Of a stretch of 40,322 bases of DNA, positions 2,711 through 23,551 are shown piece after piece. Each line of letters starts with the position of its first letter. The first letter of the stretch is position 1. Below the pieces are notes generated by a model. The model was not told the DNA's origin. It did not search any database and was given only the letters and a program-made list of their open reading frames with translations. The stretch spans positions 1 through 40,322 of the forward strand of contig SMXP01000021.1 of the NCBI GenBank assembly GCA_004356335.1. Direction: 5' to 3'. The DNA comes from Alphaproteobacteria bacterium (lineage in GTDB: Bacteria; Pseudomonadota; Alphaproteobacteria; SMXP01). Both the position numbers and the translations under genes were made by a program.

Positions 2711-2814
2711 TTAGTGTTTCCAGGAAAAGTGGACACCGGTTTTCCGTCCGGAAACACGACAAATAAATAACTTAGGGTCGGGTTTTGATTCTATCAAAAC
2801 CGGAAAGACCCTAA
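2711..2814. repeat. Mosaic hairpin repeat locus R3 (module B, two hairpins)
   Basis: ttagtgtttccaggaaaagtggacaccggttttccgtccggaaacacgacaaa..ttagggtcgggttttgattctatcaaaaccggaaagaccctaa. Copies at 25152-25257 (inverted), 34595-34699 and 40086-40192. Confidence 0.9.
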
Positions 2815-3821
2815 CTCAAGGCCGGAATAATCTTCTCTCCAATCAGCTTGATGCATTCGGCCGGATCTTCATAGATGCGTAAGGCGATTTCATTGAGCCC
2901 TGCGCTTTGAAAATCTTTTAGTTCCTCAATAATGCGGTCAATGTCTTCCAGACCGCCCCATAAGGTCAGCCCATCAACCAGTTTGTTCACCACCTCGTCC
3001 GGCACCCCTTCGATCACATGGGTGTTAGCGGCATAGGCCCTGAAGAATGCTGCCATATTGTCGCGGACCAATTGGACATCGTCTTCATCAAGGAACGGAC
3101 GGAGATACATGGGAAACAACATGCCCCGCAACACCAACCATCTTCGGGCCTCGCGCCGTGCCGCTTCTTTATCCTTTTTCACATGCCAGGCAAAAAAGTT
3201 ATTGATAGGGAAATCGGCCACCGATTTGCCTTGTTCCTTCAACTTGTCATGAGCCATTTTAATATAATCGCCCACGATAGGCCGCGGGATATCGCTCATC
3301 ATGATCCCATCAGCCACTTCGGCAGAGAATTCCATCACCTTACGTTTGTTGGCGCCCACATATATGGTCGGCGGCGGCTGCGTAACCCAAGTGGGCTCAT
3401 ATTTGCGGACTTCATAAAGGTCGCCTTTGTAACTGAATATATCGCCCTTGGCCGCCATTCTGATAATATCGATACATTCGCGGATCGCCGGCATTCGCTT
3501 TTGCGGTTTGATGCCCATGGCCTCGATGGTACCGCCGCCGCCGCCCACGACGATAATCGCGCGCCCTTTCGATATTTCGTTGAGCGTCAACAACGACGTC
3601 GCCATTTTGATGGGGTGTAATTCAAAGGGACTGATCGCAATGGGGCCCATCTTTATTTTAGATGTTGCCTGGGCGAGGATAGCAAAACTGGCGAATATAT
3701 CCTTTCCGTCGAGCTTGTTGGGCATCCAAACGGCGCCAAACCCAAGGCTTTCCGCCAATTGCCCTAATTCTACGACCTCTTCAGCCGATTTGTCGGGCTC
3801 TAGAATGACATCAATTCTCAT
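2811..3821 (-). CDS. LLM-class (luciferase-like) flavin/F420-dependent oxidoreductase
   Basis: 336 aa. The N-terminus MRIDVIL.., AESLGFGAVWMPNKL and IIVVGGGGG are typical of luciferase-like monooxygenase / methylene-H4MPT-reductase-like proteins. Confidence 0.75.
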   Translation of the reverse strand: MRIDVILEPDKSAEEVVELGQLAESLGFGAVWMPNKLDGKDIFASFAILAQATSKIKMGPIAISPFELHPIKMATSLLTLNEISKGRAIIVVGGGGGTIEAMGIKPQKRMPAIRECIDIIRMAAKGDIFSYKGDLYEVRKYEPTWVTQPPPTIYVGANKRKVMEFSAEVADGIMMSDIPRPIVGDYIKMAHDKLKEQGKSVADFPINNFFAWHVKKDKEAARREARRWLVLRGMLFPMYLRPFLDEDDVQLVRDNMAAFFRAYAANTHVIEGVPDEVVNKLVDGLTLWGGLEDIDRIIEELKDFQSAGLNEIALRIYEDPAECIKLIGEKIIPALS

Positions 3822-4144: not shown

Positions 4145-5113
4145 TTGTCCCAAAAAAAGGATCTTAAATTTGGCGTAGCCATTCCTCAGGTCTTCCTCAA
4201 CGGCAAGGCCGATATGGATTTGGTAAAAAACAGCATACGCACGGCGGAGGATCTCGGCTATCACAGTATGTGGGTCCAAGATCAAGTGCATGGCTACGTG
4301 CCCCTGCAAGAATCCGTCAGCCTGCTGTGTTATGCGGCGGCGGTGAGCTCTAAGGTCAAGCTCGGCGTGTCCGTTATCGTTTTTCCCGTGCGCAATCCGG
4401 TGCACCTTGCGAAAAGCCTCAGCACCCTTGATCAAATGAGCAATGGACGATTGATTTTAGGCATTGGACTTGGACCGCCATCGGGAAGTGAGGATTTTTA
4501 TCTTGCCTTTGGCACCAGTTACAAAGGGCGGGTACGTCGATTCAACGAGAATCTTAAAATCTTGAAATCGCTTTGGACCGAGGACAAAACGAATATAGAG
4601 GGTGAGTGGGCAACCCTTCACAACATTTCAATGGAACCAAAGCCCATCCAAAAACCCCATCCGCCTATTTGGATTGGCGGTCAGCACCCTAATGCGCTAC
4701 GCCGCGCCGTAAAATATGGCGACGGTTTTGCCTCGGCAGGACCCACTTCGACCGAAAACTATAAAAAACACGTGACTCTGGTTCGCCAGTATATGGAAGA
4801 AGAGGGACGCGATCCAGCCACCTTCACCATTTCCAAACGCGTCTATTTGGCTGTGGATGACAACGAAGACCGCGCCAAAAGCCGGCTCGATGATTGGTTC
4901 AACAAACGCTACAGCTGGATGGTGAAACACCGTCCGAAAATGGTCGAGCAAAGCTGTGTTTGGGGCAGCACCGCACGTGTCACCGAAGGTCTTGCCGACA
5001 TCCTGTCCGGCGGCGCCGAAATGCTGATCCTGAATCCCTTGTGGGACTATATGGAACAAATGGAGGCACTGGCATCGGAAGTGATCCCGCAGCTTAGGTC
5101 GAATGTCCCGTAA
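4145..5113 (+). CDS. LLM-class flavin-dependent oxidoreductase
   Basis: 322 aa. TTG start 6 nt after GGAGG (4134-4138). Motifs AEDLGYHSMWVQDQ, GRLILGIGLG and PHPPIWIGG are classic LLM-family features. Divergent from the other LLM gene. Confidence 0.8.
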   Translation: MSQKKDLKFGVAIPQVFLNGKADMDLVKNSIRTAEDLGYHSMWVQDQVHGYVPLQESVSLLCYAAAVSSKVKLGVSVIVFPVRNPVHLAKSLSTLDQMSNGRLILGIGLGPPSGSEDFYLAFGTSYKGRVRRFNENLKILKSLWTEDKTNIEGEWATLHNISMEPKPIQKPHPPIWIGGQHPNALRRAVKYGDGFASAGPTSTENYKKHVTLVRQYMEEEGRDPATFTISKRVYLAVDDNEDRAKSRLDDWFNKRYSWMVKHRPKMVEQSCVWGSTARVTEGLADILSGGAEMLILNPLWDYMEQMEALASEVIPQLRSNVP

Positions 5114-5183: not shown

Positions 5184-5888
5184 TCAACCGCCGGCGCAGC
5201 ATTCAATGGCCTCTGAATAACTCAGCCGTCGACATTCCGGAGAATCAAGCCAGCAACCGGACGACCATAGATAAACCGGCAGGATCTCCGGCTCGGATCC
5301 GTTGTTATGCCAGAAAGAATCAACCGCATACTGATTGCTTGTACCGCGTTCGATAATCGTGGCGGAATTGCTCGGCCAATCGTTAATCAACATGTTTCCG
5401 TAAATGACCGCTTCACCGATATCATGATAGGTCATCAGTCCGTCGTTCCGGAGAAAAGTCAAATAACTCGTCGTATTGGCGGATTCGTCAATACAATCCA
5501 ATTGACCGGCCTTGCCAAGATAAACAGCGCCGCCAATATCGCCCTCAATACCCGCCTTGGGACCTACTATTCTTTCGAGAAGGGCGATCGCAAGGCTAAT
5601 GCGTTTTCGCTCCTCTTCAGCATTTTGCGGACGCTGCACAAAAAGAGTGCGAACCTGAACCCATTCATCGTCGCTGATACTGACATTCGTTATGGACGTG
5701 CAGCCATAGCCATGACAGACATTAAAACTATGCCGCGTGCTATTTGTACCGACACGGTCTCTAAGCACATGTCCTACGGGAGAGCTCGTGCATCCGGCCA
5801 ACAAAACCACAAAGATCAGCGCTAACCAGCACCCCATTGACGAAAATCGAAGGTCCGATGATCCAGGTGAAAATTTACGCAATAACAT
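5184..5888 (-). CDS. Cys-rich lipoprotein of unknown function
   Basis: ORF 5184..5903. I prefer ATG 5888, which has GGAG 9 nt upstream. Lipobox VLLAG|C. Nine further Cys residues include HGYGC and a C-terminal SSGCWLDSPEC..ECCAGG. No family recognised. Confidence 0.6.
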   Translation of the reverse strand: MLLRKFSPGSSDLRFSSMGCWLALIFVVLLAGCTSSPVGHVLRDRVGTNSTRHSFNVCHGYGCTSITNVSISDDEWVQVRTLFVQRPQNAEEERKRISLAIALLERIVGPKAGIEGDIGGAVYLGKAGQLDCIDESANTTSYLTFLRNDGLMTYHDIGEAVIYGNMLINDWPSNSATIIERGTSNQYAVDSFWHNNGSEPEILPVYLWSSGCWLDSPECRRLSYSEAIECCAGG

Positions 5889-6290
5889 TTGTCCGCTCTC
5901 CAAAAGATTTCGCTCGTTCCTTCGCGGCCTGTGTTCAGGTCAAGCTCCCTTGGGCTTTCTCGTTAAGCCAGAGATCAAACGGAAATCCGTGAATAGAACA
6001 GCATTCGCCCATAGGCAGAGCAAGATGTTTATTTGCCGAACGAAAGACCTACATATCCCCACCTGAAACTTAACATCGCTCGCTGGAAGCGTATATATAC
6101 TTTATGCCATATGTCAAAATTCACCAATTAACCAAGCGGCGGCGGCAGGCGTCTCGTCGGCCACCATCCGAGTCGGAGACATCATCCCATTCATAGGGAA
6201 AACTCCGGCAAAAAACGGACCCTGCCCGGGCAATCGGTCCAAAACTCGGCCGGATTTTCGCTCAATCGCCAGTCCGCAGGCGGATCGAAT

Positions 6291-6447: not shown

Positions 6448-7218
6448 TTATTCAGCAGCGTAAGGCGGGCTGCTTGTCAAACTGGCTTGATCTCTTTCCG
6501 AAACAAAAAGGCGCTGCACATTGGCCAGGTCTTCCTGCGTGTCCACCTCACCCCAAGTCAGACCTTCAATTGACGCCGCCTGGACGAAACCATCTCTTGC
6601 CATTTTGTCCACAACCATCAGATACCAGGCGTGCACCGCTTCAGGATCTTGCATGGCCTCCGCAATGGCTTGCGCAAAAAGCTGCGGGCCTTCGCCGCGG
6701 AAATACAAAAGGCCAATCGATTCGCCGTCCGTCTCCTCGCGCGACAATTTTTTGCCGACCGCCAAAAGACGCGTCCCATTGAGTTGAACTTTCATATCGT
6801 CATCGTCGTAAGACGACTTGCGATCAATGGTGATCGTGATCGGCGCGAGGGTACTGGAAAGAACACGCCGCGGTATTCTCGGCTCGAATAATGTATCACC
6901 ATTTACCAGTAGAAAATCACTGTCCATTTCATCAATCGCCATCCAACAACTGGCAAGGTTGTCCGATACCTGAAAGAAAGGATTGAAAATTGTCCGGATG
7001 CTGAGATTGGGACTTTGCCAAGGCGCCAAGGTACGCTCAACCGCCTCAGCACCAAACCCCGTGACGACACAAACGTTATTGACGCCGCAGTCATGTAAAA
7101 CCTTTATCTGCCGTTCAAGCATGGTAAGATGGCCGATTGGCAAAAGACACTTTGGTCGGTGTTGAGTCAAAGGAAGAAGTCGTGAACCGCGTCCCGCACT
7201 TAGTATTATAGCTTTCAT
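6448..7218 (-). CDS. LicC/IPCT-like phospho-alcohol cytidylyltransferase (NTP-transferase fold)
   Basis: ORF 6448..7296. The likely start is ATG 7218 (MKAIILSAGRGSRLLPLT..PKCLL), which forms an ATGA overlap with the upstream stop. It has the G-loop LSAGRGSRL, NPFFQVSDNLASCW and WGEVDTQEDL, as in CTP:phosphocholine / inositol-phosphate cytidylyltransferases. Confidence 0.75.
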   Translation of the reverse strand: MKAIILSAGRGSRLLPLTQHRPKCLLPIGHLTMLERQIKVLHDCGVNNVCVVTGFGAEAVERTLAPWQSPNLSIRTIFNPFFQVSDNLASCWMAIDEMDSDFLLVNGDTLFEPRIPRRVLSSTLAPITITIDRKSSYDDDDMKVQLNGTRLLAVGKKLSREETDGESIGLLYFRGEGPQLFAQAIAEAMQDPEAVHAWYLMVVDKMARDGFVQAASIEGLTWGEVDTQEDLANVQRLFVSERDQASLTSSPPYAAE

Positions 7219-7964
7219 TGTACCAGCAACTTCTGAAATGTTTTGTGTTGAAATTCCGAATGAGTCAATTTTTCCGTCCCGGGTGGTATATCCCAATCGA
7301 CCACTTCATATCCGAGTTTCCCAGCCTGCTTTTTAAAGTTTCGGTTCGGGTTCACGGCTATTCCACGGTCTGCCCAAGATAAAAGTGGCACATCCGACTT
7401 ATGATCCGAGTAAGCGATGATCGTACAATCCTCTCGCGACGCCGGCAGCGCCGCCGCGACAGCGCTTAGTTTTTCTTGCCCAAAACAGTTCTCCCCCTCA
7501 ATTGTGCCACAATATCGGTCCGCTTCGTCCCAGCTGGATTTTGTGCAAACGGTCAATGCAAAGCCCAGCCTGGTCGCCAGCGGACATGCCCAAAGGTCCA
7601 TACTGGCTGTCGCCAAAACCAATAGGTGTTTCTGGGATCTATGTTTCTCAATGGCAGGTCTAGTACCCCGGCGCAGGCCTCGTAAAAGCACCCTTTCCAC
7701 AAAAGCGTCAACATAATGGTTAATTTCCTGCCGCGAACGGCCGGCCAAAAACAGGCCGAGCATTCGCTCCTTGAAAGCCTGACGGGCGATCCCCCCCGTC
7801 AAATAGCGTAGTGCCGCTACAATCGCCGGTACCAAGGCCCAGGCTCGAGTAGGATTCTGGCGCAAGACCGAGAGAAGGAATGGCGTAAAGGTGCCGTACT
7901 TCGTCAGCGTTCGATCCAAATCAAACACAGCAACCGTCACCTTGTTATCTATCGTGTTTGCCAT
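7215..7964 (-). CDS. HAD-IB family phosphatase
   Basis: 249 aa. Motif I is VAVFDLDRTLT, followed by a cap region and motif IV-like AYSDHKSDVPLL. This is the HAD subfamily IB (SerB-like) pattern. Confidence 0.8.
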   Translation of the reverse strand: MANTIDNKVTVAVFDLDRTLTKYGTFTPFLLSVLRQNPTRAWALVPAIVAALRYLTGGIARQAFKERMLGLFLAGRSRQEINHYVDAFVERVLLRGLRRGTRPAIEKHRSQKHLLVLATASMDLWACPLATRLGFALTVCTKSSWDEADRYCGTIEGENCFGQEKLSAVAAALPASREDCTIIAYSDHKSDVPLLSWADRGIAVNPNRNFKKQAGKLGYEVVDWDIPPGTEKLTHSEFQHKTFQKLLVQ

Positions 7965-7983
7965 CAGCCTGAAATTATCTCGT

Positions 7984-9195
7984 TTAAGCCTGCGCTTCCG
8001 CCAACCAGGACGTGATCGAGTGACCTCGAGCCCGCATTACCAATGCCTGAATAAGCCGCACTGCATGGAATATGAACGTAATGACACTCCACACCGCCAG
8101 CATGAGGAACCCGATATCAGGCCGTGCGATCAGGGCCCCGATCATCAATAAGGCCACGTTCGGGTTGCGCCGTGCCGAAAATAGCCGGAACACCGAATCC
8201 ACAGACTGCCACATGTGAATTTGAATGGAGAACGAAAAGACGAATATGCCTTCAATAACACGACAAGCGAGATAGCCCGCCACGATAATCACCATAGCCG
8301 TTTCCAGCCAGGGGCCAAACTGATCGTATTGGGTGGCGCCGAGGCCAATCCACCATGCCACCCACCAAAACGGCGGATGGATATGATCAATGCCATGATC
8401 GTAAATATCGCCCCATTGCGAATAGGTCATCGTAACGCGGGCAAGCTTGCCGTCGACCGTATCCAACAGGGCCATGAGCCAGGCAGTCATAATACCGCTC
8501 ATGAAGTAGCCCTTAGCGAACAGATAGGTTGTCGCAATGACCAAAATGAGACTTCCCGTGGTCACCGTATTCGGTTTGATGCCCCTATTGGCGGCCCACC
8601 GCGTCACCCGCAATGCAGGGATCGGCCAGAACCATTTGGTCACGAAATCGGTTACCCCTTTGTACGATTGGGTGAACATTTTCTTCTCGATGCCGCGCGC
8701 CGACATTTCGTTCAACGAAATCGCATAAGGCACTTCCCGTTTTCGCAGTCCCTTATTGTAGGCAGAACCTAGTTCCGACGGGCATAAAATCCTGAGTCCC
8801 AGAGCCTCTGCCGACGTGTCATCAAACGCACCCTTGGTCACAAGGGCATGTGCTAATTCGAATCGGCGGGCATCCCCCTCGGCTTCAAGATGGATAGCGA
8901 CCACTTTCCGTTGGCCGTTGGCCGTTGGCTCGGTGACCAGAAGTACATTGGGCGATGTGGTTAGATTTCGCACCAGACTGGGATGCAGAACCCATTCGGC
9001 CCCGACCACCAAAACAGCCCTATCGGGCTTGGCTCGTTTGGTGTCGACTTCGGCGCCGGACCGTGAAAAGCCACGCGCCAAATGCTCCTTGGGTGTCAGC
9101 CCCCAAATCCGCTGTTTGCAGTCGCCGACAATGCGTAGTACCGGCTTCGAGTTTCCCTCCACCGCATCCCGCGACTGCGGCTCTTCGACCGTCAA
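7984..9195 (-). CDS. CDP-alcohol phosphatidyltransferase-family membrane protein with N-terminal soluble domain of about 170 aa
   Basis: The signature is complete: DTVDGKLARVTMTYSQWGDIYDHGID fits D-x2-DG-x2-AR-x8-G-x3-D-x3-D. Multiple TM segments follow. TTG start 9195 has GGAGG 10 nt upstream. Confidence 0.85.
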   Translation of the reverse strand: MTVEEPQSRDAVEGNSKPVLRIVGDCKQRIWGLTPKEHLARGFSRSGAEVDTKRAKPDRAVLVVGAEWVLHPSLVRNLTTSPNVLLVTEPTANGQRKVVAIHLEAEGDARRFELAHALVTKGAFDDTSAEALGLRILCPSELGSAYNKGLRKREVPYAISLNEMSARGIEKKMFTQSYKGVTDFVTKWFWPIPALRVTRWAANRGIKPNTVTTGSLILVIATTYLFAKGYFMSGIMTAWLMALLDTVDGKLARVTMTYSQWGDIYDHGIDHIHPPFWWVAWWIGLGATQYDQFGPWLETAMVIIVAGYLACRVIEGIFVFSFSIQIHMWQSVDSVFRLFSARRNPNVALLMIGALIARPDIGFLMLAVWSVITFIFHAVRLIQALVMRARGHSITSWLAEAQA

Positions 9196-9485: not shown

Positions 9486-9932
9486 ATGACAAAAAGTGAT
9501 TGGGTCAATGAGACGATTCTCAAGTTCGGATATCCCAAAACCCTTGTCGCCGAATCCACCCATTGGGTGATACTCCTGCGGCCACGTCAAGCGACGTTGG
9601 GCGCCCTGATCCTGGCCCATAAGGGACATGCGACGTCGTGGGGGCAGATTGAGGCGGGCGCCTTCGAAGAGCTCAAGAAAATCACCTCGGGCGTCGAAAA
9701 TGCCCTGTCCAAAGCCGTCGAATTCAAAAAGCTCAATTACCTGATGTTGATGATGGTGGATCCACAGGTTCATTTTCATGTTCTGCCCCGCTACGATCGC
9801 GACCAGACGTTCGCGGATATTGTTTTTCCTGATCCGGGATGGCCCGGCCCGCCGGATCTAGGTTACGCCCCCGATCTTGATCCGGGCGCTTTTGAACGAT
9901 TGCGCCAGCACATACGCAGTCACTGGGCCTAA
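9486..9932 (+). CDS. HIT-superfamily nucleotide hydrolase/transferase-like protein
   Basis: 148 aa. QVHFHVLPRY aligns with the HIT motif HxHxHVLPR. The first His is Gln and the two distal His are kept. Divergent from the CDP-alcohol transferase operon. Confidence 0.6.
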   Translation: MTKSDWVNETILKFGYPKTLVAESTHWVILLRPRQATLGALILAHKGHATSWGQIEAGAFEELKKITSGVENALSKAVEFKKLNYLMLMMVDPQVHFHVLPRYDRDQTFADIVFPDPGWPGPPDLGYAPDLDPGAFERLRQHIRSHWA

Positions 9933-9940
9933 ACGATTAT

Positions 9941-11356
9941 TTAAATTCGCGCCAACAGCCGTGACGCGATAACAAACAACAAAATGGCAGCCACAAGGTT
10001 GCCGATCAAAGCGGCAACGCCAGCGCCGATCAAACCTATTTCCATTAACAACACAATGATGGCGCTGACATGCACAATGCCCGCAACAAGCTTGATATAT
10101 AATGCCAGCTGCGGGCGGCCGATTGCATACAATGTTGGTTCAAAGGCAAACGTCGCCATGGCAACAGACGATGCAAGTGTGAGAATCAACAAGACGCCAT
10201 AAGCGTCGGCGAAGTCGTCACCGAAAAGATAAAAAAGTACCGGTTGGCCGGCAACAAATACAATAACGGTAAAAAGGCTACCGATCAGAAGGCCTAGTTT
10301 GCCCGACTTAAAGACGATCTGTCGCAAATAGGCGCCGCTCTGCGAACCCGCGAGCTTTGCCAATTCCGGGTAGATCGTGCTGTTAAACAACTGGGCCGCT
10401 TTGGTCAGTGCTCCGGCAATCTCCTGGGCCACTTTGAGAAGGGCAGCCCCGGCCGGACCAAGAATGAAACCAACAGACAGAGTCGCGATATACGTACTGG
10501 CCATATTAGCGGTGCCGTGGAAATTGGCCGTCCAAACAAATGGCCATATGCCTTCGTGGGGGGATGCCAATCCACGCAAACGCCAATCCATGCCTTCGGT
10601 CACTTTTTGCCTTTTTAATTCGCGCCACCCGAGACAAACTAAAACCAGCGCGCTCAATGCACCTGCAATAAACCAAACTAAAAGATAGATCTGCCAACTT
10701 GCGCCCATATAACTGGCAATCCCTACACCAATCAATCGCAAGATAGGCACGATCAACGCTTGAAATCCCAACAAATCGAATCGGTTGAACAATCGCAACA
10801 CACCCAAAGGCGTCGATTTGACGTTGATCAGAATGAGCACACAATAAACCGTTGCAAGCGGCACCGCATCGGGCGCAAGACCGAACCTTGGTCCAACATA
10901 TTGAATGGCAATAGCCCCGATAAGAAATCCGATTACCGCACTTGCCACGTCGAGACACAGTGTCAGTTTTAACAATTTCTGAAAGGCGCCGAGATCGTCT
11001 TTATCGAGATAGGCCGCGCCGTAACGAATGAGTGCTTGCCAGGATTTGAAGGAAACGATTTCTCGGACGAACGCCGAATAAGTATGAATTAAGACAATGA
11101 TGCCGAACTGAGCAGCACCCAATGCCTGTGCGGCAAGGGAAAGGTAGGCAACGCCCGCAACAACAGCCACGCCCTTACTACTGACCACAATGCCCGTATT
11201 TTTAAGCACCCGCCGGAACAAATGATCGGGCGACCAGCCATCCGATTGTCGTTGTGTAACATCGGTCGCAGAACCGGACGTGATGGAGCCTTCCGGCGAT
11301 GGGGCGTCGGCGTCGGAGGCCATCCCTTTTTGATTGTCCCGAGTGGTCATTTTCAC
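9941..11356 (-). CDS. MOP/Wzx-type polysaccharide or lipid-linked-substrate flippase
   Basis: 471 aa with at least 12 hydrophobic segments, like proteins annotated as lipopolysaccharide biosynthesis / Polysacc_synt. GTG 11356 overlaps the upstream TGA (GTGA). An alternative ATG lies at 11350. Confidence 0.7.
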   Translation of the reverse strand: MKMTTRDNQKGMASDADAPSPEGSITSGSATDVTQRQSDGWSPDHLFRRVLKNTGIVVSSKGVAVVAGVAYLSLAAQALGAAQFGIIVLIHTYSAFVREIVSFKSWQALIRYGAAYLDKDDLGAFQKLLKLTLCLDVASAVIGFLIGAIAIQYVGPRFGLAPDAVPLATVYCVLILINVKSTPLGVLRLFNRFDLLGFQALIVPILRLIGVGIASYMGASWQIYLLVWFIAGALSALVLVCLGWRELKRQKVTEGMDWRLRGLASPHEGIWPFVWTANFHGTANMASTYIATLSVGFILGPAGAALLKVAQEIAGALTKAAQLFNSTIYPELAKLAGSQSGAYLRQIVFKSGKLGLLIGSLFTVIVFVAGQPVLFYLFGDDFADAYGVLLILTLASSVAMATFAFEPTLYAIGRPQLALYIKLVAGIVHVSAIIVLLMEIGLIGAGVAALIGNLVAAILLFVIASRLLARI

Positions 11357-12162
11357 TGTCGCGCAAGCAAGATTTTTTCCGCTAGTTCCAGATCAGCCAT
11401 TTTATCAACATCGATGGCGGCTTCGGGAAACGGCAGGTTGACGGGCCTTGCCACAAGGCCAAGCCGATTCGAAGCGCGGTCTAACGCCTTAACCAATGTC
11501 GGTCGCCTCAGAAAAAACATTATAATGGTCAATAGACCAAATGCCCAAATTATGCGCCAGGGCCGTTTGCGATGGCGAACCACATCCCGCCAGAATTCCG
11601 CCGCCTTAAGTCCCTTCGCCGTTCGAAAGACGAAAAGATTGCACGAAGAATATTTGTCGTCCTTGAAAGGAAGGTAGGTTCGTTGAGCATCCGGAAATTT
11701 CTCTTGGATCAACCGGCCGGACGTAAAGGCAATCGATAAGTCGGCCGATGCTTTGAGCAACTCTTTACAGAAATAGTCGACAATCTCAACCGTCAGAAGA
11801 GCATTGTCTCCGGTTGTTACCAATAGGGGGAAAGGATCGGAAAGAGAGTGGGCGGCCGTCAAGAGACTATCAGGCGCGCTCCTTGCCGAAGGCATAAATT
11901 CAATGGCACCTTGATCCAGAAAGTCCTGCAACACCGGTATTGCCTCCAAGGCCTCGGCCTGATCCCCAACCACGATTATGCGCCCAATCCGGTGGCTGAC
12001 TTTCAAGGCATCAATAACACGCAGCAAAATTGGTGTCCCCGCTGCCGCCATGTAACACTTGTTATGTTGCCAAACCGACTCAATTGCATCACTCCCGGAA
12101 TGTCGCCCAGCTAAGATGAGCGCAGTAAAGAGTTGAGATTGTGACGCCAATTCCTCTGCCAC
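11353..12162 (-). CDS. MobA-like (NTP_transf_3) nucleotidyltransferase-family protein with C-terminal hydrophobic segment
   Basis: 269 aa. It has LFTALILAGRHSGSDAIE (G-loop-like), ..MAAAGTPILLRVIDAL and LLVTTGDNALL. GTG start 2 nt after the upstream stop. Confidence 0.6.
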   Translation of the reverse strand: MAEELASQSQLFTALILAGRHSGSDAIESVWQHNKCYMAAAGTPILLRVIDALKVSHRIGRIIVVGDQAEALEAIPVLQDFLDQGAIEFMPSARSAPDSLLTAAHSLSDPFPLLVTTGDNALLTVEIVDYFCKELLKASADLSIAFTSGRLIQEKFPDAQRTYLPFKDDKYSSCNLFVFRTAKGLKAAEFWRDVVRHRKRPWRIIWAFGLLTIIMFFLRRPTLVKALDRASNRLGLVARPVNLPFPEAAIDVDKMADLELAEKILLARQ

Positions 12163-12164: not shown

Positions 12165-13367
12165 TTAAAGTGCCTTCTCGTACATGCGATAAACTTTATA
12201 GGGGCGTCCGCCAATTGCCTCAATCATATTGCGCATGGCCGTATTGTCTTCGAGTATCCATGACATCTCACTTTTCTTGATTCCCCTTTCCAGGTGGCTC
12301 GCGTAAATATTCTCTATCGTTCCGTAAGCAAAAACGGCACCAAGCGGTGTCGCTTGAAATTCCTTACGAACCCCCATCAAGGGCACTCGGACGGTGCTCA
12401 CCCGGTTCAATTTCAGGCGATAAAGCAAGCGCGCCCAGCCAAACGGAAAAAGCCTGCCGTCAAGATCACGTATCGCCTCATTGAGATTGGGCAATGCCAT
12501 AGCAAAGGCGACCGGCCTGCCTTCAAATTCAGCAAAGCAGACCGAATGGGAATTAATGAGAGGCCGCACCTCTTTGGCAAGGTGCCGAATTTCTTTTTCC
12601 GTGAAAGGCAGGAATCCCCAATTCTCCGACCACGCATCGTTAAAGATATCAGCGATAATGGCCATTTCTCGTTCATAGGCGCTCCAATTGAGCGGACGCA
12701 ACGTGATTTTCGGATCGTGTTTTCCGCGATCCACCAATCGGCTAACCGACGGCGGAATGCCGCCTTCGCTCAATGTGATCAAATAAGCGATTAGATCCTT
12801 CGCCTTTTGGTAGCCGCATTGCTCCAGCATGCTCCCATAATAGGGCCTCGCATGTCCCATCATGAGCATAGGCGGGTCATCAAACCCCTCTACAAGCACA
12901 CCGCATTCGTCATTGACCGAAAAATTGAAAGGTCCAAGGCTGCGGCGCATATTGCGCGAGCGCAGCCATTCCTCCGCCGCCGCAAGCAACGCCTCGAAGA
13001 CATCTTTCGAGTTAACCGCCTCCAAAAAGCCGATATGTCCCGTATGGGCATCGTGTTTTTCTAGAAAGCGGCGGTCAATCTGCGCACTCAGCCGGCCCAC
13101 GACTTCCCCGTCTTGCAACGCCAACCACAGCTGAACCTCTGCTTGGTCAAAGTAAGGATTATGTTTTGAACTTAAATGACGCAAGCGCTCGACAAGCAGC
13201 GGTGGAACCCACGCCGGGTCATCGGCGTATATCTTCCACGGCAGGCGGATGAAAGTTTTTAGATCTTTACGGGTCCTAACCGGAACGATGTGGATTGCGG
13301 AAACCCCATTCGCATCTGGAGACGGAGTGGCCTCGCGCGTTATCGAAGACGGCTCAAATGTCGGCAT
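12165..13367 (-). CDS. large (about 400 aa) GNAT-fold N-acyltransferase; candidate bacterial ceramide synthase (tentative)
   Basis: ORF 12165..13427. The likely start is ATG 13367 (MPTFEPSS), sharing 1 nt with the upstream TGA (TGATG). Motifs FIRLPWKIYADDPAWVPPLL, GRLSAQIDRRF, GFLEAV and GPFNFSVNDECGVLVEGFD belong to a family often mislabelled dATP pyrophosphohydrolase. Confidence 0.55.
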   Translation of the reverse strand: MPTFEPSSITREATPSPDANGVSAIHIVPVRTRKDLKTFIRLPWKIYADDPAWVPPLLVERLRHLSSKHNPYFDQAEVQLWLALQDGEVVGRLSAQIDRRFLEKHDAHTGHIGFLEAVNSKDVFEALLAAAEEWLRSRNMRRSLGPFNFSVNDECGVLVEGFDDPPMLMMGHARPYYGSMLEQCGYQKAKDLIAYLITLSEGGIPPSVSRLVDRGKHDPKITLRPLNWSAYEREMAIIADIFNDAWSENWGFLPFTEKEIRHLAKEVRPLINSHSVCFAEFEGRPVAFAMALPNLNEAIRDLDGRLFPFGWARLLYRLKLNRVSTVRVPLMGVRKEFQATPLGAVFAYGTIENIYASHLERGIKKSEMSWILEDNTAMRNMIEAIGGRPYKVYRMYEKAL

Positions 13368-14137
13368 CAATTCTTGGCAGCAACGATCGGGGCTGTCTCG
13401 GAACCCGTGGACAATTGTGCCACCCAAGGATATCGCTTGGCTTCGCTGTCCGTGTAACCCAAATTTCGCGCGGTTGGGCTACGCGGCACCGAACTGTTGC
13501 TGTCATAATAGGACGAGAAAAACCTGTCCCACAAATAGTTGGTAATGCCGTAATTGCCCGTCTCATTGTGAAAGTGGTGAGCCATATGCAATTGCTTGAT
13601 TCGCTCGAGAAAAGCGCTCTTTGGCGCATATCCCAGATGTTGACTGCAATGACAAAACTCATAAAAGCAAGTGACCAGGATGCCTGCCGCAAGTCCAATT
13701 GCCGCCCCCGACAAACCGCCAATAAGCCCGCCCATGGGCGCGGTCACGACCACAACCGTCGGCAGCGTGGTATGCAGACCGCCGAACAGCACCGCCATAT
13801 CGTTCGGATTCTGATGATGATCGAAATGTATCCGCTTCCAAAGCGCTGCCGTCATCTCCGATTTATAAAGCCAGCGACCGTGCAGAAGGAAACGGTGAAG
13901 AACATACCAAACAAGAGGATAAACCAAAATGACAACCACCACGACAATCGCCAAATCAGCCAATCGACCGAGCGAATAAACCGCCAAAATACACAGCGCG
14001 AAAAACAACATGAGATAGACTTGAATTCCTGGATAGGTGAAATAGGCCTTGACCAGGTCATTTAGAGACATCTTGTCCAGAAGATATTTCTGACTCTTCC
14101 AGGTCTTGTAACTCATAAACACGAGAGTCGCTCCCAA
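13367..14137 (-). CDS. fatty-acid hydroxylase / sterol-desaturase-superfamily membrane di-iron enzyme
   Basis: His boxes HRFLLH, HFDHHQNP and HMAHHFHNE, with an N-terminal TM pair. First gene of a four-gene overlapping operon. Confidence 0.8.
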   Translation of the reverse strand: MGATLVFMSYKTWKSQKYLLDKMSLNDLVKAYFTYPGIQVYLMLFFALCILAVYSLGRLADLAIVVVVVILVYPLVWYVLHRFLLHGRWLYKSEMTAALWKRIHFDHHQNPNDMAVLFGGLHTTLPTVVVVTAPMGGLIGGLSGAAIGLAAGILVTCFYEFCHCSQHLGYAPKSAFLERIKQLHMAHHFHNETGNYGITNYLWDRFFSSYYDSNSSVPRSPTARNLGYTDSEAKRYPWVAQLSTGSETAPIVAAKN

Positions 14138-14351: not shown

Positions 14352-14948
14352 TTATTTTTTTGACGGCCAATTTTTCAACACAATCTCCACATCGGCGCCG
14401 TTTTCACCGACTTCGAAGGACAGGTCGCTAAATTTCGGTACCCTTAATCGTATTCGCGGATTGTTCGACAAGCCGAACGGCTCCTTGGGAAAACCCAACC
14501 AATTCTTGTCGAATTTTCTATTCCCGTTGATGTCGTGATAAACCGCAATGGCATAAGTGCCATATGTTTCCACCGGAACACATAAACGGACCTGGTCAAA
14601 CGCTGCCGACACCCGCGTGCGCGAGATTTTCATACCTTTCTTGAGGATATGATCCGGGTTGTCGGCAAGAAGGTCCACCACAATCGACCCGCTCGCCGTC
14701 CTTACATCTTGCACCGTAACCAATATATGAGATGCTAATTGGGCGCAGCCGGCGACACCGAGGCTTTGTGAAGGCACGGCTGAAACCACAACGCCCAAGA
14801 CCACAATGAGCGCTGCCAGCGGCCAATATAGAGCAGGCCGAAGAAAAGATATTACAGCCGGTAAATAAAAAGTGACCGGCGATAAACGAGAATTATTGTG
14901 GATTGAAGGGTCCAACCCACTGAAATTGAGCAAATCTCTCAATATCAT
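14352..14948 (-). CDS. DUF2141-like exported/anchored protein
   Basis: ORF 14352..14987. The start is uncertain (GTG 14987, ATG 14963 or ATG 14948). It has a TM/signal segment PLAALIVVLGVVVSAV and a C-terminal YAIAVYHDINGNRKFDKNWLGFPKEPFGLSNN, which I recognise as the DUF2141 signature. Confidence 0.6.
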   Translation of the reverse strand: MILRDLLNFSGLDPSIHNNSRLSPVTFYLPAVISFLRPALYWPLAALIVVLGVVVSAVPSQSLGVAGCAQLASHILVTVQDVRTASGSIVVDLLADNPDHILKKGMKISRTRVSAAFDQVRLCVPVETYGTYAIAVYHDINGNRKFDKNWLGFPKEPFGLSNNPRIRLRVPKFSDLSFEVGENGADVEIVLKNWPSKK

Positions 14949-15000
14949 GCCCCCCTGAAGCATATGAAACAGCAAACATTTACCCACTTAGCCCAACTAT

Positions 15001-15076: not shown

Positions 15077-16291
15077 ATGAGTTTGGTCAACCGATACATA
15101 TTGCGACAACTAATTGTCTATTCGGCAACGATCATGTTGATTGCCTTGGCCGCGCTGTTGCTCGAACGCATGCTTAGGTTGCTCGATCTGACGGTAAATT
15201 CAGATGGTATGATCGGTTATGTCTCGCAAATGCTACTGAATCTAATTCCGCATTATTTGGGAATCGCAATACCGACGACATTCTTTCTCGCAGTGCTTTT
15301 GACAGTGAGCCGCATGAGCCGCAACAGCGAGCTCACGGCGCTCAATGCAGCCGGCGTCGGACTGTTGAGATTGATGTATCCCATTATGGCGACAGCAATT
15401 TTACTAACGGCAATCACCGCAATATTACTCTCCGTCATTCAACCCTACAGCCGCTACACTCATCGATCGCTGGTTCACGACGTTAGCTACCGCTCTCTTG
15501 ACACGGCACTCAAGGAAGGTGCCTTCGTACATGCCGGCGACATGACTTTCATGGCGGAGGGCCGGTCAACAATGGGCGACATATTGACGAATGTCTTCGT
15601 GTTTAAGCGCAACGATGACGGAAGCTCTACTGTTACGACAGCACCCAAAGGTCTATTGCTAAAGGACGCCCCTGAGCTCGGTATGTCCCTCGGCCTTGAA
15701 AATGGCGTCCGCATTGATTTCACCAAACAAGGGAGTTTTGACCGCCGCTTGAGTTTTGAGTCGTTTTTGTGGCCGGTTAATATCGGCACTTTGGGGCCGT
15801 TCCGTGCCCGAGGTCGTGACGAACGCGAGCTGACCCTCACGGAACTTTGGCAGTATCGAAATTCCGCGCCAGAAAAAATCGGTAAAAATAAAATCGTTTC
15901 GGAGTTTCACGTGCGACTCGTGAAGATTCTGTCGATATTAATCTTGCCCCTCATGGCTGTGCCTTTGGGGCTCAATAATAGCCGCACCAGTCAATCCTGG
16001 GGTGTGGCACTCGGGGTACTCGTACTCATTGTCTACCAAAAAGTCATCGAGCTCGGCAGTGCGTTATCGGGGGTCGGCGCAGCATCTCCTTTGGTTAGCA
16101 TGTGGCTACCGTTTCTGTTGTTTTTAGTGGTCGGAGCGGGACTTTTTTATCACGTGAGTCGGCGCGTCACCGCCGACCCGACAGACTGGCTCGCACACCA
16201 ATTTGGTGGATTTGCGTCATGGGTGCAGGGATTTTTCGATCGCGCAAAAGATGGGGCGACCGTTGCTAGACGGCCGCAACAAACTAGATGA
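15077..16291 (+). CDS. lptF: LptF-type LPS export permease (YjgP/YjgQ family)
   Basis: 404 aa. The N-terminus NRYILRQL.. is typical of LptF/LptG. There are six hydrophobic segments with a large periplasmic insert between TM3 and TM4. Confidence 0.8.
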   Translation: MSLVNRYILRQLIVYSATIMLIALAALLLERMLRLLDLTVNSDGMIGYVSQMLLNLIPHYLGIAIPTTFFLAVLLTVSRMSRNSELTALNAAGVGLLRLMYPIMATAILLTAITAILLSVIQPYSRYTHRSLVHDVSYRSLDTALKEGAFVHAGDMTFMAEGRSTMGDILTNVFVFKRNDDGSSTVTTAPKGLLLKDAPELGMSLGLENGVRIDFTKQGSFDRRLSFESFLWPVNIGTLGPFRARGRDERELTLTELWQYRNSAPEKIGKNKIVSEFHVRLVKILSILILPLMAVPLGLNNSRTSQSWGVALGVLVLIVYQKVIELGSALSGVGAASPLVSMWLPFLLFLVVGAGLFYHVSRRVTADPTDWLAHQFGGFASWVQGFFDRAKDGATVARRPQQTR

Positions 16292-17355
16292 CGTCTACCT
16301 TACATCGATATCTCACCAAGTTATTTTTCTCGCGCTTGGTGCTATTGCTGGTCGGTATCAATTTTCTTGTCGTCATTCTGGATTTTATGGCCAATGGCGA
16401 CGATGTGATCAGCTCGAACTCGACACCGCTTTTGTCATCCTTTCGCTATATGGGGCTGCGCCTGCCTCAAATTGCGTCAACACTCATGCCGTTTGTATTG
16501 CTTATTGCGGTTCTCCTTACATTGATGGAACTGGTCCGGCATCAAGAAATGGCGGCGATGATGTCGGCCGGCATGTCACAGCTTAAAGTCATGTTGACCC
16601 TGCTGCCCGCGGGCATGATCGTCGCGGTTTTACAATTTGCCATTAATGACCAATTGGAGCCGAGAGCTATAAAGGAACTAAAGAATTGGGGAGTCGGAGA
16701 ATACAAAGTTGATAAGGGGGAGGAGATCGATGCAATTTGGTTTCACCATCAAAGTGACATAATTCGCGTGGGCCGCGTCGAACGCGGTGATCTACTTCAC
16801 GACATTACTATTTTCCGGCGTGGTCAAGACGGAAACATAGTCGAGCGCATTCATGCGAATAGGCTGGTTCACGAAAATGGGACTTGGATTCTGAGTGACG
16901 TCAGCCGTTCGACCATTACTCGCCGCGAGCCGGAACAACTCGACCATCTTGAATGGCAGAGCAATCTGCAGCCCCATCTTGTGGCATCGCTTGCATCTCA
17001 TCCCAAGGATCTATCCGTTTTTGAGATCAGACGATTTTGGCAAGAGGCAAGGTTTGGCAGCTTTCCCAATCATGTTTATGAAGTGTGGATGCACCGGAAA
17101 ATTGTTGCGCCCCTCGTCCTTTTTGTCATGGTTCTAATGTCTGTTCCGCTTGTCCAGCGCTACCAACGTGATACAAATTTAGTTTCGATATTAGTATTCG
17201 GATTGGCTGCGGGTTTTTTCTTCATTGTCTTTGACGATCTTTTGATGACATTTGGCGAGGCGGGGCTCATCCCGCCCATATTGGCTGCTTGGGCGGCAAC
17301 TCTGATCTTCGCCGCAATCGGCGCGACATTGGCCTTGCACCACGAGTCACTCTGA
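16288..17355 (+). CDS. lptG: LptG-type LPS export permease (YjgP/YjgQ family)
   Basis: 355 aa with the same architecture (LHRYLTKLFFSRLVLLL..). ATGA overlap with lptF at 16288-16291. Confidence 0.8.
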   Translation: MTSTLHRYLTKLFFSRLVLLLVGINFLVVILDFMANGDDVISSNSTPLLSSFRYMGLRLPQIASTLMPFVLLIAVLLTLMELVRHQEMAAMMSAGMSQLKVMLTLLPAGMIVAVLQFAINDQLEPRAIKELKNWGVGEYKVDKGEEIDAIWFHHQSDIIRVGRVERGDLLHDITIFRRGQDGNIVERIHANRLVHENGTWILSDVSRSTITRREPEQLDHLEWQSNLQPHLVASLASHPKDLSVFEIRRFWQEARFGSFPNHVYEVWMHRKIVAPLVLFVMVLMSVPLVQRYQRDTNLVSILVFGLAAGFFFIVFDDLLMTFGEAGLIPPILAAWAATLIFAAIGATLALHHESL

Positions 17356-17357
17356 AC

Positions 17358-18332
17358 ATGAACACGCCCGCCGTAAAAGTAGGCCTCATATCAAATCCCT
17401 TAAGTCAAAGAAATAAGAAGCGCCGGGGTAAGCTTAACGACATCGTTAGTTCACACGCCGATATATTATACGAGCCCCTTGAGGAGATCGCCGCTTTGGC
17501 AGAGATTCTCAAAAAGTTTTCGGCCCGTGAGGTCGGGCTGATTGTGCTGGATGGCGGCGATGGCACGGTTCAAGCGGCTTTGACCGAATTACTAAACGGC
17601 AACGCTTACGACACACCGCCATTGCTGTGTGTCTTGCCAAGCGGTATGACCAACTTAATTGCCGGCGATGTCAGCGGCAAAGGAACACCGGAAATGGGTT
17701 TCTCTCGAGTGATAGAGAGAGCGCGCAACGAATCCTTCGATCAATGGATCGTTGAGCGCCATGTCATTCGCGTGCAATATGCACCAGACCTGTCACCCAT
17801 TTACGGCATGTTTTTTGGCATGGGCGCGGTGACACGGGCGATCGAACAATGTCGTCGCGTCATTCACCCCCTGCGAATTGAAGGACCCGGCGCGGTAGGC
17901 CTTACCTTGGCCGGCCTGCTCATACGCAGATCGATCAGAGGGAACCGCGACGATACTGTGTTTCGCGGCGACAATATCACGCTTCAATTTAATGACGGTA
18001 AGGCGATCCCGATACATAACCTGCTGGTTTTGATCTCGACTTTGAAGCGACTTGCGCTTGGAACGCGGCCCTTTTGGGGAGAAGGCAATGGCGGTCTCCA
18101 AGTTACAAGCATCGCCTATCCGCCCACTCGATTTTGGCGCTCACTTTTCCCCCTGCTATATGGCAAGGAAAGGCGCAACCTTGATTCCGAGATTTATTTG
18201 AGCCAAAGAACCGATCATCTCGCCATCACAATGAACAGCCCGTTCACATTGGACGGTGAGATGTTCCAGCCTTCACCGGACATTCCCGTCAGATTAGAGG
18301 CTGCCGGTCCGGTTCGGTTTATCCGCTGGTGA
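17358..18332 (+). CDS. diacylglycerol-kinase-fold lipid kinase (candidate ceramide/sphingoid kinase)
   Basis: ORF 17289..18332. The likely start is ATG 17358 (MNTPAVKVGLISNPLS), 2 nt after the lptG stop. It has the DAGK_cat signature LIVLDGGDGTVQAAL and LPSGMTNL. Confidence 0.75.
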   Translation: MNTPAVKVGLISNPLSQRNKKRRGKLNDIVSSHADILYEPLEEIAALAEILKKFSAREVGLIVLDGGDGTVQAALTELLNGNAYDTPPLLCVLPSGMTNLIAGDVSGKGTPEMGFSRVIERARNESFDQWIVERHVIRVQYAPDLSPIYGMFFGMGAVTRAIEQCRRVIHPLRIEGPGAVGLTLAGLLIRRSIRGNRDDTVFRGDNITLQFNDGKAIPIHNLLVLISTLKRLALGTRPFWGEGNGGLQVTSIAYPPTRFWRSLFPLLYGKERRNLDSEIYLSQRTDHLAITMNSPFTLDGEMFQPSPDIPVRLEAAGPVRFIRW

Positions 18333-20497: not shown

Positions 20498-20752
20498 TTA
20501 TTTTTCGCTCACAAGCTTTTGAACAGACTTAACCAGATCGCCCACAGTCCGCAGTTCAGACATTAAATTCATGGGGAAGGATATATCGTAACTATCCTCC
20601 AACTCCATGATCAAATCTAAGATAGCCACGGAATCGATCTCCAATTCCGTTGCAATATCGGTGTCTTTCGTCAATTCAATGTTATTGACATTGAAGACTT
20701 TCAGCAATGCACAAGTCTTTTGAAAGACCAAATCGTGATCTTCCTGTGGCAT
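20498..20752 (-). CDS. dedicated acyl carrier protein
   Basis: ORF 20498..20875. I prefer ATG 20752 (MPQEDHDLV..) or 20770, because the upstream 35 codons are repeat-derived (the same peptide appears in ORF 39862..40206). Phosphopantetheine site ELEIDSVAILDL. The stop is 4 nt before the spt ATG. Confidence 0.85.
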   Translation of the reverse strand: MPQEDHDLVFQKTCALLKVFNVNNIELTKDTDIATELEIDSVAILDLIMELEDSYDISFPMNLMSELRTVGDLVKSVQKLVSEK

Positions 20753-20802
20753 CTTTTCTCTATCCTTCATCTTTTGGTTCTCATTCGGATATACGCTATC
20801 AA

Positions 20803-20947
20803 CTAGAGCACGTTCACAAAAGATGGAATCACTAACGTGCTCTAGGTCTTTGTTTTGTCGCGCATTCGAACCCAAAAACCGCGTACACTTTTTGTGAATG
20901 CGCTCTAGACCACGTTCTTCGATTCTATGAATTGTGAACGTGGTCTA
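20803..20947. repeat. Mosaic hairpin repeat locus R6 (modules C + A + D)
   Basis: C: ctagagcacgttcacaaaagatggaatcactaacgtgctctag (20803-20845). Linker gtctttgttttgtc. A: 20860-20908. D: ctagaccacgttcttcgattctatgaattgtgaacgtggtcta (20905-20947). It is intercistronic between the acyl ligase and the ACP. Confidence 0.9.
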
Positions 20948-23462: not shown

Positions 23463-23551
23463 CCCTTAGGCTTTGCACCTGATACGGAACCCGTTGCGTG
23501 GGCTTGTTCAACTGTAGGTCATTATTCGAAGGATCATATCAATTGAGGAAA

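Follow-up and report, generated by a model that had tools for sequence, protein, structure and literature searches.

A cpgA-HAD-cpgD operon that probably serves the second phosphoglycerate step of ceramide diphosphoglycerate synthesis in an alphaproteobacterial sphingolipid cluster

Which alcohol is attached to which lipid by a three-gene module consisting of a transferase, a HAD-IB phosphatase and a LicC-like cytidylyltransferase, and what does the phosphatase contribute? The question is raised by a minus-strand operon at positions 6448-9195 of a 40,322-nucleotide stretch of alphaproteobacterial DNA (contig SMXP01000021.1 of assembly GCA_004356335.1, positions 1 to 40,322; henceforth the window). 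An earlier note, made from the letters of the sequence, had described the three genes as a head-group module working through a cytidine diphosphate (CDP)-activated alcohol, had proposed from the flanking sphingolipid genes that the lipid is ceramide-based, and had held that the alcohol could not be determined. The ceramide head-group module is supported by the comparisons described here, but the alcohol proved to be assignable. Specifically, we consider it likely that the operon carries out the second-phosphoglycerate step in the synthesis of ceramide diphosphoglycerate (CPG2), with the HAD phosphatase in place of CC_1158, the calcineurin-like phosphoesterase of the corresponding Caulobacter cluster.

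The three genes were seen both in the list of open reading frames (ORFs) and in direct reads of the sequence, with the strand, the 19-nt gap and the ATGA overlap that had been described. The transferase gene (7984-9195) encodes 403 residues from a TTG start, with a GGAGG motif ending 10 nt 5' of it; exactly 19 nt (acgagataatttcaggctg) separate its TAA stop from the ATG of the HAD gene (7215-7964; 249 residues), whose own stop forms the ATGA overlap with the start of the cytidylyltransferase gene (6448-7218) and which is translationally coupled to it. The cytidylyltransferase has 256 residues when counted from the ATG of MKAIILSAGRGSRL, and an alternative 282-residue ORF with a TTG start is longer and unneeded. 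A public metagenome assembly (GCA_004566115.1) carries an identical transferase, and its independent gene call gave products of 403, 249 and 256 residues; exact copies of the proteins turned up on short metagenomic contigs only. A single three-gene operon fits the layout, since a terminator-like hairpin follows the last gene and a promoter-like site lies upstream. The hairpin (6421-6390, minus strand; a 13-bp stem with 9 G-C pairs followed by a TTTT run) begins 27 nt past the cytidylyltransferase stop and is a consensus match only. The promoter-like site (9481-9453, minus strand; TTGAAA-17-AAAAAT, matching at 9 of 12 positions) is weak and lies in the 290-bp divergent region between the transferase gene and a HIT-family gene; the number of such sites in our scan was not above chance expectation. 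Scanning the whole window against Rfam gave no matches.

The identity of the alcohol follows most directly from the cytidylyltransferase. The protein matches the Pfam families PF00483 (44.0 bits) and PF12804 (43.3 bits), both above their cut-offs and both also found in its orthologue from Caulobacter segnis, and it contains the LSAGRGSRL and WGEVDTQEDL motifs already pointed out in the earlier note. It is the reciprocal best hit, at 47% identity, of C. segnis CpgD (CC_1152/CCNA_01210 type), a CTP:phosphoglycerate cytidylyltransferase; the C. segnis cluster, rather than that of C. crescentus, served as our Caulobacter reference for orthology. In BLASTP searches C. segnis CpgD found the ORF at 6448-7296 (47%), whereas the other nucleotidyltransferase of the cluster, CC_1153, found the gene at 11353-12162 (39%), meaning that the two nucleotidyltransferases are distinct. 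CpgD (CCNA_01210) has been shown biochemically to be a Mg-dependent enzyme that converts cytidine triphosphate (CTP) and, preferably, 2-phospho-D-glycerate into CDP-glycerate (PMC12275187), and its crystal structures name the residues in contact with CTP and glycerate (PMC13228409).

Carrying the published numbering over by motif and offset via the C. segnis orthologue (and not from the C. crescentus sequence), we matched CpgD residues G12, R16, K26, T88 and N90 to G9, R13, K23, S85 and N87 of the window protein, T93, N110, G111 and D112 to S90, N106, G107 and D108, and M147, K161, S170 and W201 to M142, K156, S167 and W198. All the glycerate contacts (N90, N110, M147, K161 and S170 of CpgD) are thus kept; the serine in place of T93 retains the hydroxyl, and the contact of T88 is made via the backbone. 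The contact residues are likewise kept in 41-44 of 44 CpgD orthologues, if Ser, Thr and Ala are treated as equivalent at the positions of T88 and T93; matches of 36-40% identity to CpgD in two loci (L058 and L078) were set aside as doubtful. Sequence searches of the PDB returned distant matches only, the copy searched holding no CpgD entry. Because the cytidylyltransferase is a CpgD orthologue by reciprocal best hit and all the published contact residues are kept, the alcohol of the head-group module can be assigned, at the level of sequence comparison, as phosphoglycerate.

The transferase is in turn an orthologue of CpgA (CC_1159/CCNA_01217 type), a CDP-alcohol phosphotransferase composed of an N-terminal cytoplasmic domain (approximately residues 19-176) and a catalytic domain of six transmembrane helices. 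Its PF01066 domain (residues 208-342; 32.9 bits against a cut-off of 22) holds the complete signature that had been noticed before, D245-x2-D248-G249-x2-A252-R253-x8-G262-x3-D266-x3-D270, which did not vary in sets of 27 and 112 homologues. Its reciprocal best hit is the C. segnis gene at L025:9887-11101 (45.6% identity over 388 residues), which lies between the CC_1158-type phosphoesterase gene and cpgB. Full-length relatives number in the thousands, mostly from Alphaproteobacteria, being about 400 residues long, 42-55% identical and aligned over 94-100% of their length; a profile search with the CpgA family retrieved 404 representatives at E <= 1e-30, and the closest genome relatives of the window protein belong to uncultured Kiloniellales and Rhodospirillales (46-48% identity). 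The earlier note would have been undermined by a transferase clustering firmly with housekeeping PgsA or PssA in a genome without another copy, but the enzyme is of neither housekeeping kind. No PgsA or PssA model in NCBIfam was matched at E <= 0.01; all matches were below threshold, namely PIPS (NF045883, 45.6 bits against 170), AIPS (NF040950, 43.5 against 180), both confined to the motif region, and IPCT/DIPPS (NF041135, 32.8 against 580).

The N-terminal part of the transferase, a domain of some 170 residues that the earlier note had left without assignment, indeed has no Pfam family: the roughly 175-200 residues ahead of PF01066 matched none, even at E <= 1. It can nonetheless be placed by its predicted fold. 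An AlphaFold2 (AF2) model of the whole protein (predicted local distance difference test score, pLDDT, 93.3; predicted template-modelling score, pTM, 0.89) has an alpha/beta domain at residues 19-176 followed by transmembrane helices, and its best match in Foldseek is AF2299, with a template-modelling (TM) score of 0.75 normalised to the target and about 390 aligned columns spanning both domains. The model also matches IPCT-DIPPS (4mnd) over 449 columns and, more weakly, stand-alone IPCT and RmlA, while PgsA structures rank low (7drk, E 0.03, TM score 0.26 normalised to the query). Matches to 5d92, 5d91, 6wm5 and 6wmv were ruled out as independent support: according to the PDB molecule names these are fusions to the AF2299 N-terminal domain, so that the end-to-end fold matches to PIPS, being crystallisation constructs that carry this domain, add nothing independent. 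A profile-profile comparison of the CpgA and CpgD families placed CpgA residues 25-153 on nucleotidyltransferase positions 23-192 with sensible topology, although non-significantly (probability 20%, E 1e-3), and showed no counterpart of the GxGxR loop in the CpgA domain. The predicted structure therefore suggests an AF2299-type domain with a nucleotidyltransferase fold that has lost its catalytic G-loop; one may speculate that it serves as a dock for CDP-glycerate or for CpgD. An N-terminal cytoplasmic domain has been described in the literature for CC_1159.

Natural fusions of CpgA were found in metagenomic proteins (P0211, P0230, P0289, P0256, P0307, P0239, P0254 and P0267, some of which are possibly gene-calling artefacts), the partners being CpgB, CpgC, the flippase-like protein and a CC_1153-type nucleotidyltransferase; CpgD, HAD and the phosphoesterase were not among the fusion partners found. 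The CC_1153-type, MobA-like domain stands N-terminal to CpgA in one fusion, which is the domain order of IPCT-DIPPS and hints that the second nucleotidyltransferase may feed CpgA directly. As a separate observation, two full-length CpgA homologues (40-43% identity) stand apart from the other cluster genes, none of which occurs within 10 kb to either side in L017 or within the roughly 3.9 kb of downstream flank in L042; the pathway genes may be dispersed there, or this transferase family may have another use.

To place these genes in context, we scanned one genome per species for relatives of CpgA and compared the window proteins with the resulting 80 loci, many of them from Caulobacter, by tblastn. 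Within 10 kb of cpgA we found cpgB in 69 loci, cpgC in 68, lptF2 in 66, the HIT gene in 64, lptG2 in 63, the serine palmitoyltransferase gene spt in 59, a CC_1153-like gene in 55, the ceramide synthase gene cerS in 54, cpgD in 49 and the acyl-ACP (acyl carrier protein) synthetase gene in 44. The Caulobacter loci have the published gene order CC_1152...CC_1166 (PMC11324152, Fig. 4 and S1 Text), and the published Pfam families of CC_1152, CC_1158 and CC_1159 were recovered in the C. segnis neighbours. By reciprocal BLASTP, 14 ORFs of the C. segnis cluster (the Caulobacter phosphosphingolipid cluster CC_1152-CC_1168) corresponded one-to-one to window genes. The identities of CpgA (46%) and CpgD (47%) are as high as those of accepted orthologues from Hyphomonas, Sphingomonas and Nitrosomonas (41-45% and 44-54%, respectively). 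The operon is part of the published CPG2 pathway, in a variant form. The HIT gene lies no more than 2.5 kb upstream of cpgA in 55 of the 80 loci, and a linkage so conserved suggests that it takes part in the pathway, although CC_1157, its Caulobacter counterpart, is regarded in the literature as probably unrelated to phosphosphingolipid synthesis.

Caulobacter genetics provides the framework within which the window genes can be read. Mutants in cpgB and cpgC lose both ceramide phosphoglycerate (CPG) and CPG2, while mutants in cpgA, cpgD and CC_1153 keep CPG and lose CPG2 (PMC9393093, PMC11324152). The presence of a CDP-alcohol maker (here) and a putative CDP-lipid maker (the Tam41-like gene at 18337-19284) had made the chemical direction appear ambiguous; the same genetics largely settles it, with CpgB and the Tam41-like CpgC making CPG, and CpgD and CpgA contributing the second phosphoglycerate only. 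In the window, CpgB would phosphorylate ceramide and CpgC would turn the ceramide-1-phosphate into CPG. The CpgD orthologue would convert CTP and 2-phosphoglycerate into CDP-glycerate and pyrophosphate, and the CpgA orthologue would transfer phosphoglycerate from CDP-glycerate onto CPG at its CDP-alcohol phosphotransferase site, yielding CPG2 and cytidine monophosphate (CMP). The HAD phosphatase would act as an accessory phosphohydrolase in the place of CC_1158, raising the yield of CPG2 from CPG, its substrate most likely being a small phosphomonoester of phosphoglycerate type (a phosphorylated intermediate or a by-product). We infer both the donor and acceptor of CpgA and the role of the HAD phosphatase.

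What, then, can be said of the phosphatase itself (7215-7964, minus strand)? It belongs to the HAD-IB family (PF12710 at 3e-32) and to the TIGR01490 subfamily (126.4 bits against a cut-off of 98.3). The residues of motifs I-IV (D15, D17, T19, T119, K165, D187 and D191) are invariant among 23 homologues, and the enzyme is probably active, judging from these residues. Its AF2 model (pLDDT 92.3) has as its closest fold the uncharacterised 3fvv (TM score 0.85), followed by SerB-type phosphoserine phosphatases, ThrH, MtnX and pyrimidine 5'-nucleotidases. NCBIfam gave no match to the SerB equivalog, and its best named matches were far under their cut-offs; the PgpC model TIGR01545 (cut-off 259 bits) scored 23.8 bits and aligned with no more than 74 N-terminal residues. 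A small subfamily of 72 proteins was recovered at E <= 1e-10, and automatic annotation calls some of the homologues PgpC. Every homologue of at least 44% identity whose context was examined lies within a cpgA-HAD-cpgD arrangement, and a further metagenomic locus, with a HAD 48% identical, has the order hydroxylase-CerS-CC_1153-HIT-cpgA-HAD-cpgD. More remote homologues have neighbours other than a cpgA operon, either genes for Mla and Lgt or genes for a flippase and a nucleotidyltransferase.

Support for a replacement comes from the distribution of the HAD gene. Among the 80 loci, 61 carry a CC_1158-type metallophosphoesterase and 9 carry the HAD gene, always as cpgA-HAD-cpgD; none has both, and 10 have neither, some of these on truncated contigs. 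The median distance from cpgA to the CC_1158-type gene upstream of it is 127 bp. The window holds no homologue of the CC_1158 phosphoesterase (tblastn, E > 3), and HAD has a different fold from that of the Metallophos family (PF00149). In Caulobacter, deletion of CC_1158 lowers CPG2 only partly (a substitute gene is suspected by the authors), and the mutant accumulates CPG rather than losing it. With moderate confidence, we conclude that the HAD phosphatase probably substitutes for CC_1158; it may act on a phosphorylated CPG-type intermediate, following the logic of PgsA and PgpC, or on a small by-product.

Several observations weigh against this interpretation. First, the either/or pattern tracks the CpgA tree: in a neighbour-joining analysis the loci with HAD and those with neither gene fall into a few basal groups, so the pattern amounts to few independent events, and the hypergeometric P of 4e-7 for mutual exclusion overstates the evidence. 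Second, three loci with full flanks (L014, L017 and L019) carry neither gene, meaning that neither phosphoesterase is obligatory in the cluster, and a straightforward reaction of CDP-glycerate with CPG requires no phosphatase at all. Third, our literature search found no assay of CpgA, whose donor and acceptor rest on the lipid profiles of mutants and on the product of CpgD (PMC12275187, PMC13228409). CC_1153 is also needed for CPG2, and it is a CC_1153-type nucleotidyltransferase, not CpgD, that is fused to the CpgA N-terminus in one protein, so the true donor of CpgA could differ or be more complex; an alternative scheme of this kind has been put forward (PMC11324152). Finally, the map of CpgD contacts passes through the C. 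segnis orthologue instead of the C. crescentus sequence itself.

A trimming phosphatase, as the earlier note had it, would be an integral part of the reaction. In such a scheme the CpgA product would bear a terminal phosphate, which HAD or CC_1158 would remove as a necessary step; we regard this as possible but doubtful. Equally tentative is its chemical detail, in which CpgA would join a CDP-activated partner to an acceptor that already bears a phosphate, be it 2-phosphoglycerate, 3-phosphoglycerate or a phosphorylated CPG species. The closest characterised relatives of CpgA are PIPS, AIPS and DIPPS, all of which have acceptors of this phosphorylated kind and depend on a phosphatase for the following step. 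A phosphoesterase gene of one or the other type adjoins cpgA in 70 of the 80 loci, the HAD gene is tightly coupled between cpgA and cpgD, and its SerB-like fold would suit a phosphoserine- or phosphoglycerate-like group, the two being similar compounds. The weak likeness to PgpC and the automatic PgpC labels mentioned above point the same way, and Olea-Ozuna et al. have proposed a final phosphoesterase step for CC_1158. On the other hand, loss of CC_1158 lowers CPG2 only in part, 10 of the 80 loci do without either gene, CDP-glycerate would yield CPG2 directly with nothing left to trim, and a phosphorylated CPG2 intermediate is not reported in the CPG literature examined. There is some chance, though a minor one, that HAD and CC_1158 are true pathway enzymes, that CpgA obeys the rule of PgsA, PIPS and DIPPS, and that the accepted one-step model of CDP-glycerate plus CPG is incomplete.

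Alternatively, the HAD phosphatase may trim no lipid and serve as a metabolic helper: a phosphoserine phosphatase providing serine for Spt, a phosphoglycerate phosphatase providing free glycerate, or a scavenger of CMP or pyrophosphate that would pull nucleotidyl transfer forward. Such a role is compatible with its fold neighbours (SerB-type phosphatases, ThrH and pyrimidine 5'-nucleotidases), with the mild effect of losing CC_1158 and with the remoter homologues that lie away from cpgA operons. We nevertheless judge it unlikely, given the missing match to the SerB equivalog in NCBIfam and the confinement of the closer homologues (at least 44% identity, where context was examined) to cpgA-HAD-cpgD; moreover, the accumulation of CPG in the CC_1158 mutant argues against a supply of glycerate or serine.

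An inositol lipid, as in a route where the cytidylyltransferase makes CDP-inositol, the transferase makes inositol-phospho-ceramide (or its phosphate) and HAD finishes the product, is very unlikely. The three genes match the content of an alternative cluster in Bacteroides (PMC9246714), the sole bifunctional model matched by both enzymes is IPCT/DIPPS, the best profiles of the transferase are PIPS and AIPS, and the cytidylyltransferase aligns end to end, albeit weakly, with the IPCT structures 2xme and 4mnd. All of these scores fall far short, however, including that of the cytidylyltransferase against NF041135 in NCBIfam (66.7 bits, with the cut-off at 580, to set beside the transferase scores given above). 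The window ORFs scanned with Pfam contain no inositol-phosphate synthase, an absence that had already been remarked upon, and CpgD itself has IPCT as its top structural neighbour, yet acts on phosphoglycerate through contacts that the window protein keeps. With clear orthology to CpgD in addition, we rejected inositol as the principal explanation; of the options listed in the earlier note, inositol phosphate, choline, serine and an aminophosphonate are accordingly not favoured. Hardly credible, lastly, is a soluble phosphodiester solute (akin to di-myo-inositol phosphate or diglycerate phosphate) in place of a lipid head group: IPCT, DIPPS and a phosphatase do form a solute pathway and the 4mnd fold match is long (449 columns), but most of the 80 loci surround the family with genes for sphingolipid synthesis and Lpt-like transport, it occurs fused to ceramide kinase, CpgC and the flippase-like protein, and what disappears from Caulobacter when cpgA is mutated is a lipid, CPG2.

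Further counterparts of the Caulobacter cluster lie beside the operon. Divergent from cpgA lies the HIT-family gene (9486-9932, plus strand), an orthologue of CC_1157 with 44% identity to C. segnis and a HIT domain at E 0.001. It is followed on the minus strand by a flippase-like polytopic membrane protein (9941-11356; CC_1166 orthologue, 35% identity over 409 residues to C. segnis, no Pfam match), the MobA/CofC-like nucleotidyltransferase orthologous to CC_1153 (11353-12162; PF12804), the bacterial ceramide synthase bCerS (12165-13427; CC_1154 orthologue with a GNAT domain, 47% identity over 383 residues) and a member of the fatty acid hydroxylase family (13367-14137; PF04116, 54% identity to an ORF of the C. 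segnis cluster, present in 17 of the 80 loci). A DUF2141 protein (14352-14987, minus strand) recurs in 27 of the 80 loci and stands in C. segnis between the HIT and phosphoesterase genes; it is absent from the published CC_1152-CC_1168 gene list. On the plus strand are two permeases of LptF2/LptG2 type (15077-16291 and 16288-17355; CC_1156 and CC_1155 orthologues, both with PF03739), the ceramide kinase gene cpgB (17289-18332; CC_1160 orthologue, DAGK_cat, 29% identity over 326 residues) and cpgC (18337-19284; CC_1161 orthologue, 315 residues, 33% identity over 311 residues to C. segnis). The last, the Tam41-like gene of the earlier note, has no Pfam match even at E <= 1, and the Tam41 label comes from PMC11324152 (S1 Text). 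Three minus-strand genes complete the set, encoding serine palmitoyltransferase (19258-20493; CC_1162 orthologue, PF00155, 52% identity), the specialised acyl carrier protein AcpR (20498-20875; CC_1163 orthologue, PP-binding at 1.6e-9, 39% identity to C. segnis, the true start probably being internal) and the acyl-ACP synthetase AasR (20995-22761; CC_1165 orthologue, AMP-binding, 45% identity over 569 residues). A CC_1164-type ceramide reductase, CerR, is absent both from its Caulobacter position between acpR and aasR and from elsewhere in the 40-kb window, and the window has no counterparts of CC_1167 or LptC2 (CC_1168).

The flanks of the cluster hold further genes. Directly beside it is a phosphate-uptake set (23498-30910) with a phosphate-selective porin O/P, PstS, PhoU, PstC, PstA and two PstB-like ATPases, in which PhoU (26318-27403) is fused to a low-molecular-weight phosphatase domain. 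Beyond it (31050-34248) are a putative ATP-dependent zinc protease (PF05618), an inactive transglutaminase with seven transmembrane helices (PF14400, PF14402) and a sugar-transfer-associated ATP-grasp protein (PF14397), whose consecutive genes resemble a conserved three-gene system that has nothing to do with the operon. On the other side, just past the operon terminator, a 239-residue ORF (5184-5903, minus strand) has a lipoprotein-like signal (LLAGC) but matches no Pfam family and lacks a counterpart throughout the 80 loci, and two genes of the luciferase-like monooxygenase family (2811-3821, minus strand; 4145-5113, plus strand) upstream of the cluster are probably unrelated to it.

Orthology and residue conservation thus assign a module once flagged with an unknown head group to the ceramide diphosphoglycerate pathway, which enables Caulobacter to live without lipid A and sets its polymyxin sensitivity. 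The pathway itself is known, and our general understanding of such systems is unchanged; what is new is modest, namely a HAD gene in place of that for the phosphoesterase, the N-terminal fold of CpgA, and the observations on fusions and HIT linkage. Given its either/or distribution with CC_1158, HAD-IB is a candidate enzyme for the phosphoesterase step that is still unexplained, and could fill the CC_1158 gap in clusters of Hyphomonas type, while the CpgA fusions and the conserved HIT linkage suggest that the published reaction scheme is still incomplete.

Among known systems, the pairs PgsA/PgpC and PIPS/PIP-phosphatase likewise combine a transferase of the CDP-alcohol family with a phosphatase, and PgpC is also of HAD-IB type; the window HAD stays under the PgpC cut-off, however, and the transferase matches no PgsA model. 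The Bacteroides vulgatus/Prevotella cluster (NTP transferase, BVU_RS13095; CDP-alcohol transferase, BVU_RS13105; HAD, BVU_RS13115; Heaver 2022) contains the same three superfamilies in a sphingolipid producer and follows a similar, Kennedy-like logic, but it adjoins an inositol-phosphate synthase gene and its use of CDP-inositol has only been proposed, our literature search having found no functional confirmation of this alternative inositol-lipid pathway; the likeness to the window genes described here is one of gene content. AF2299 of A. fulgidus and IPCT-DIPPS (PDB 4o6m/4q7c and 4mnd) share with CpgA the order of a cytoplasmic domain of nucleotidyltransferase fold followed by a domain of six transmembrane helices. 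They are 12-16% identical to CpgA, whose N-terminal domain lacks GxGxR, the active cytidylyltransferase being encoded by a separate gene, and the substrate assigned to it is, instead of inositol phosphate, a phosphoglycerate on a ceramide lipid.

Closer is the C. crescentus system (Zik 2022; Olea-Ozuna 2024; Dhakephalkar 2025; Raquib 2026, preprint), which has the same enzyme families and the same two-domain build of CpgA, and which shares with the window the partners cpgB, cpgC, CC_1153, cerS, spt, acpR, aasR, lptF2/G2, the HIT gene and the flippase-like gene. The arrangement differs in two respects. The window unites cpgA and cpgD in one operon with HAD between them, whereas in Caulobacter some 7 kb separate cpgA from cpgD, which adjoins CC_1153; and in Caulobacter CC_1158 is divergent from cpgA in a cluster without HAD, whereas the window has HAD and no CC_1158. 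The arrangement of the window recurs in Hyphomonadaceae: three Henriciella loci (L015, L036 and L062) have the same order of HIT, cpgA, HAD-IB and cpgD and no CC_1158 orthologue, and HAD occupies this position in one further Hyphomonadaceae locus. Identities to this type are 36-46% for HAD and 42-48% for CpgA; the lineage of the window is a distinct one, closest to uncultured Kiloniellales and Rhodospirillales. For Hyphomonas neptunium the published table lists CpgA as HNE_1581 and CpgD as HNE_1579, gives CC_1158 as missing and leaves HNE_1580 unassigned; our literature search found no mention of HNE_1580. Since H. neptunium lacks CC_1158, and since HAD stands at that very position in the Henriciella and other Hyphomonadaceae loci, HNE_1580 is probably a HAD phosphatase of the window type within an HNE_1582-HNE_1579 arrangement.

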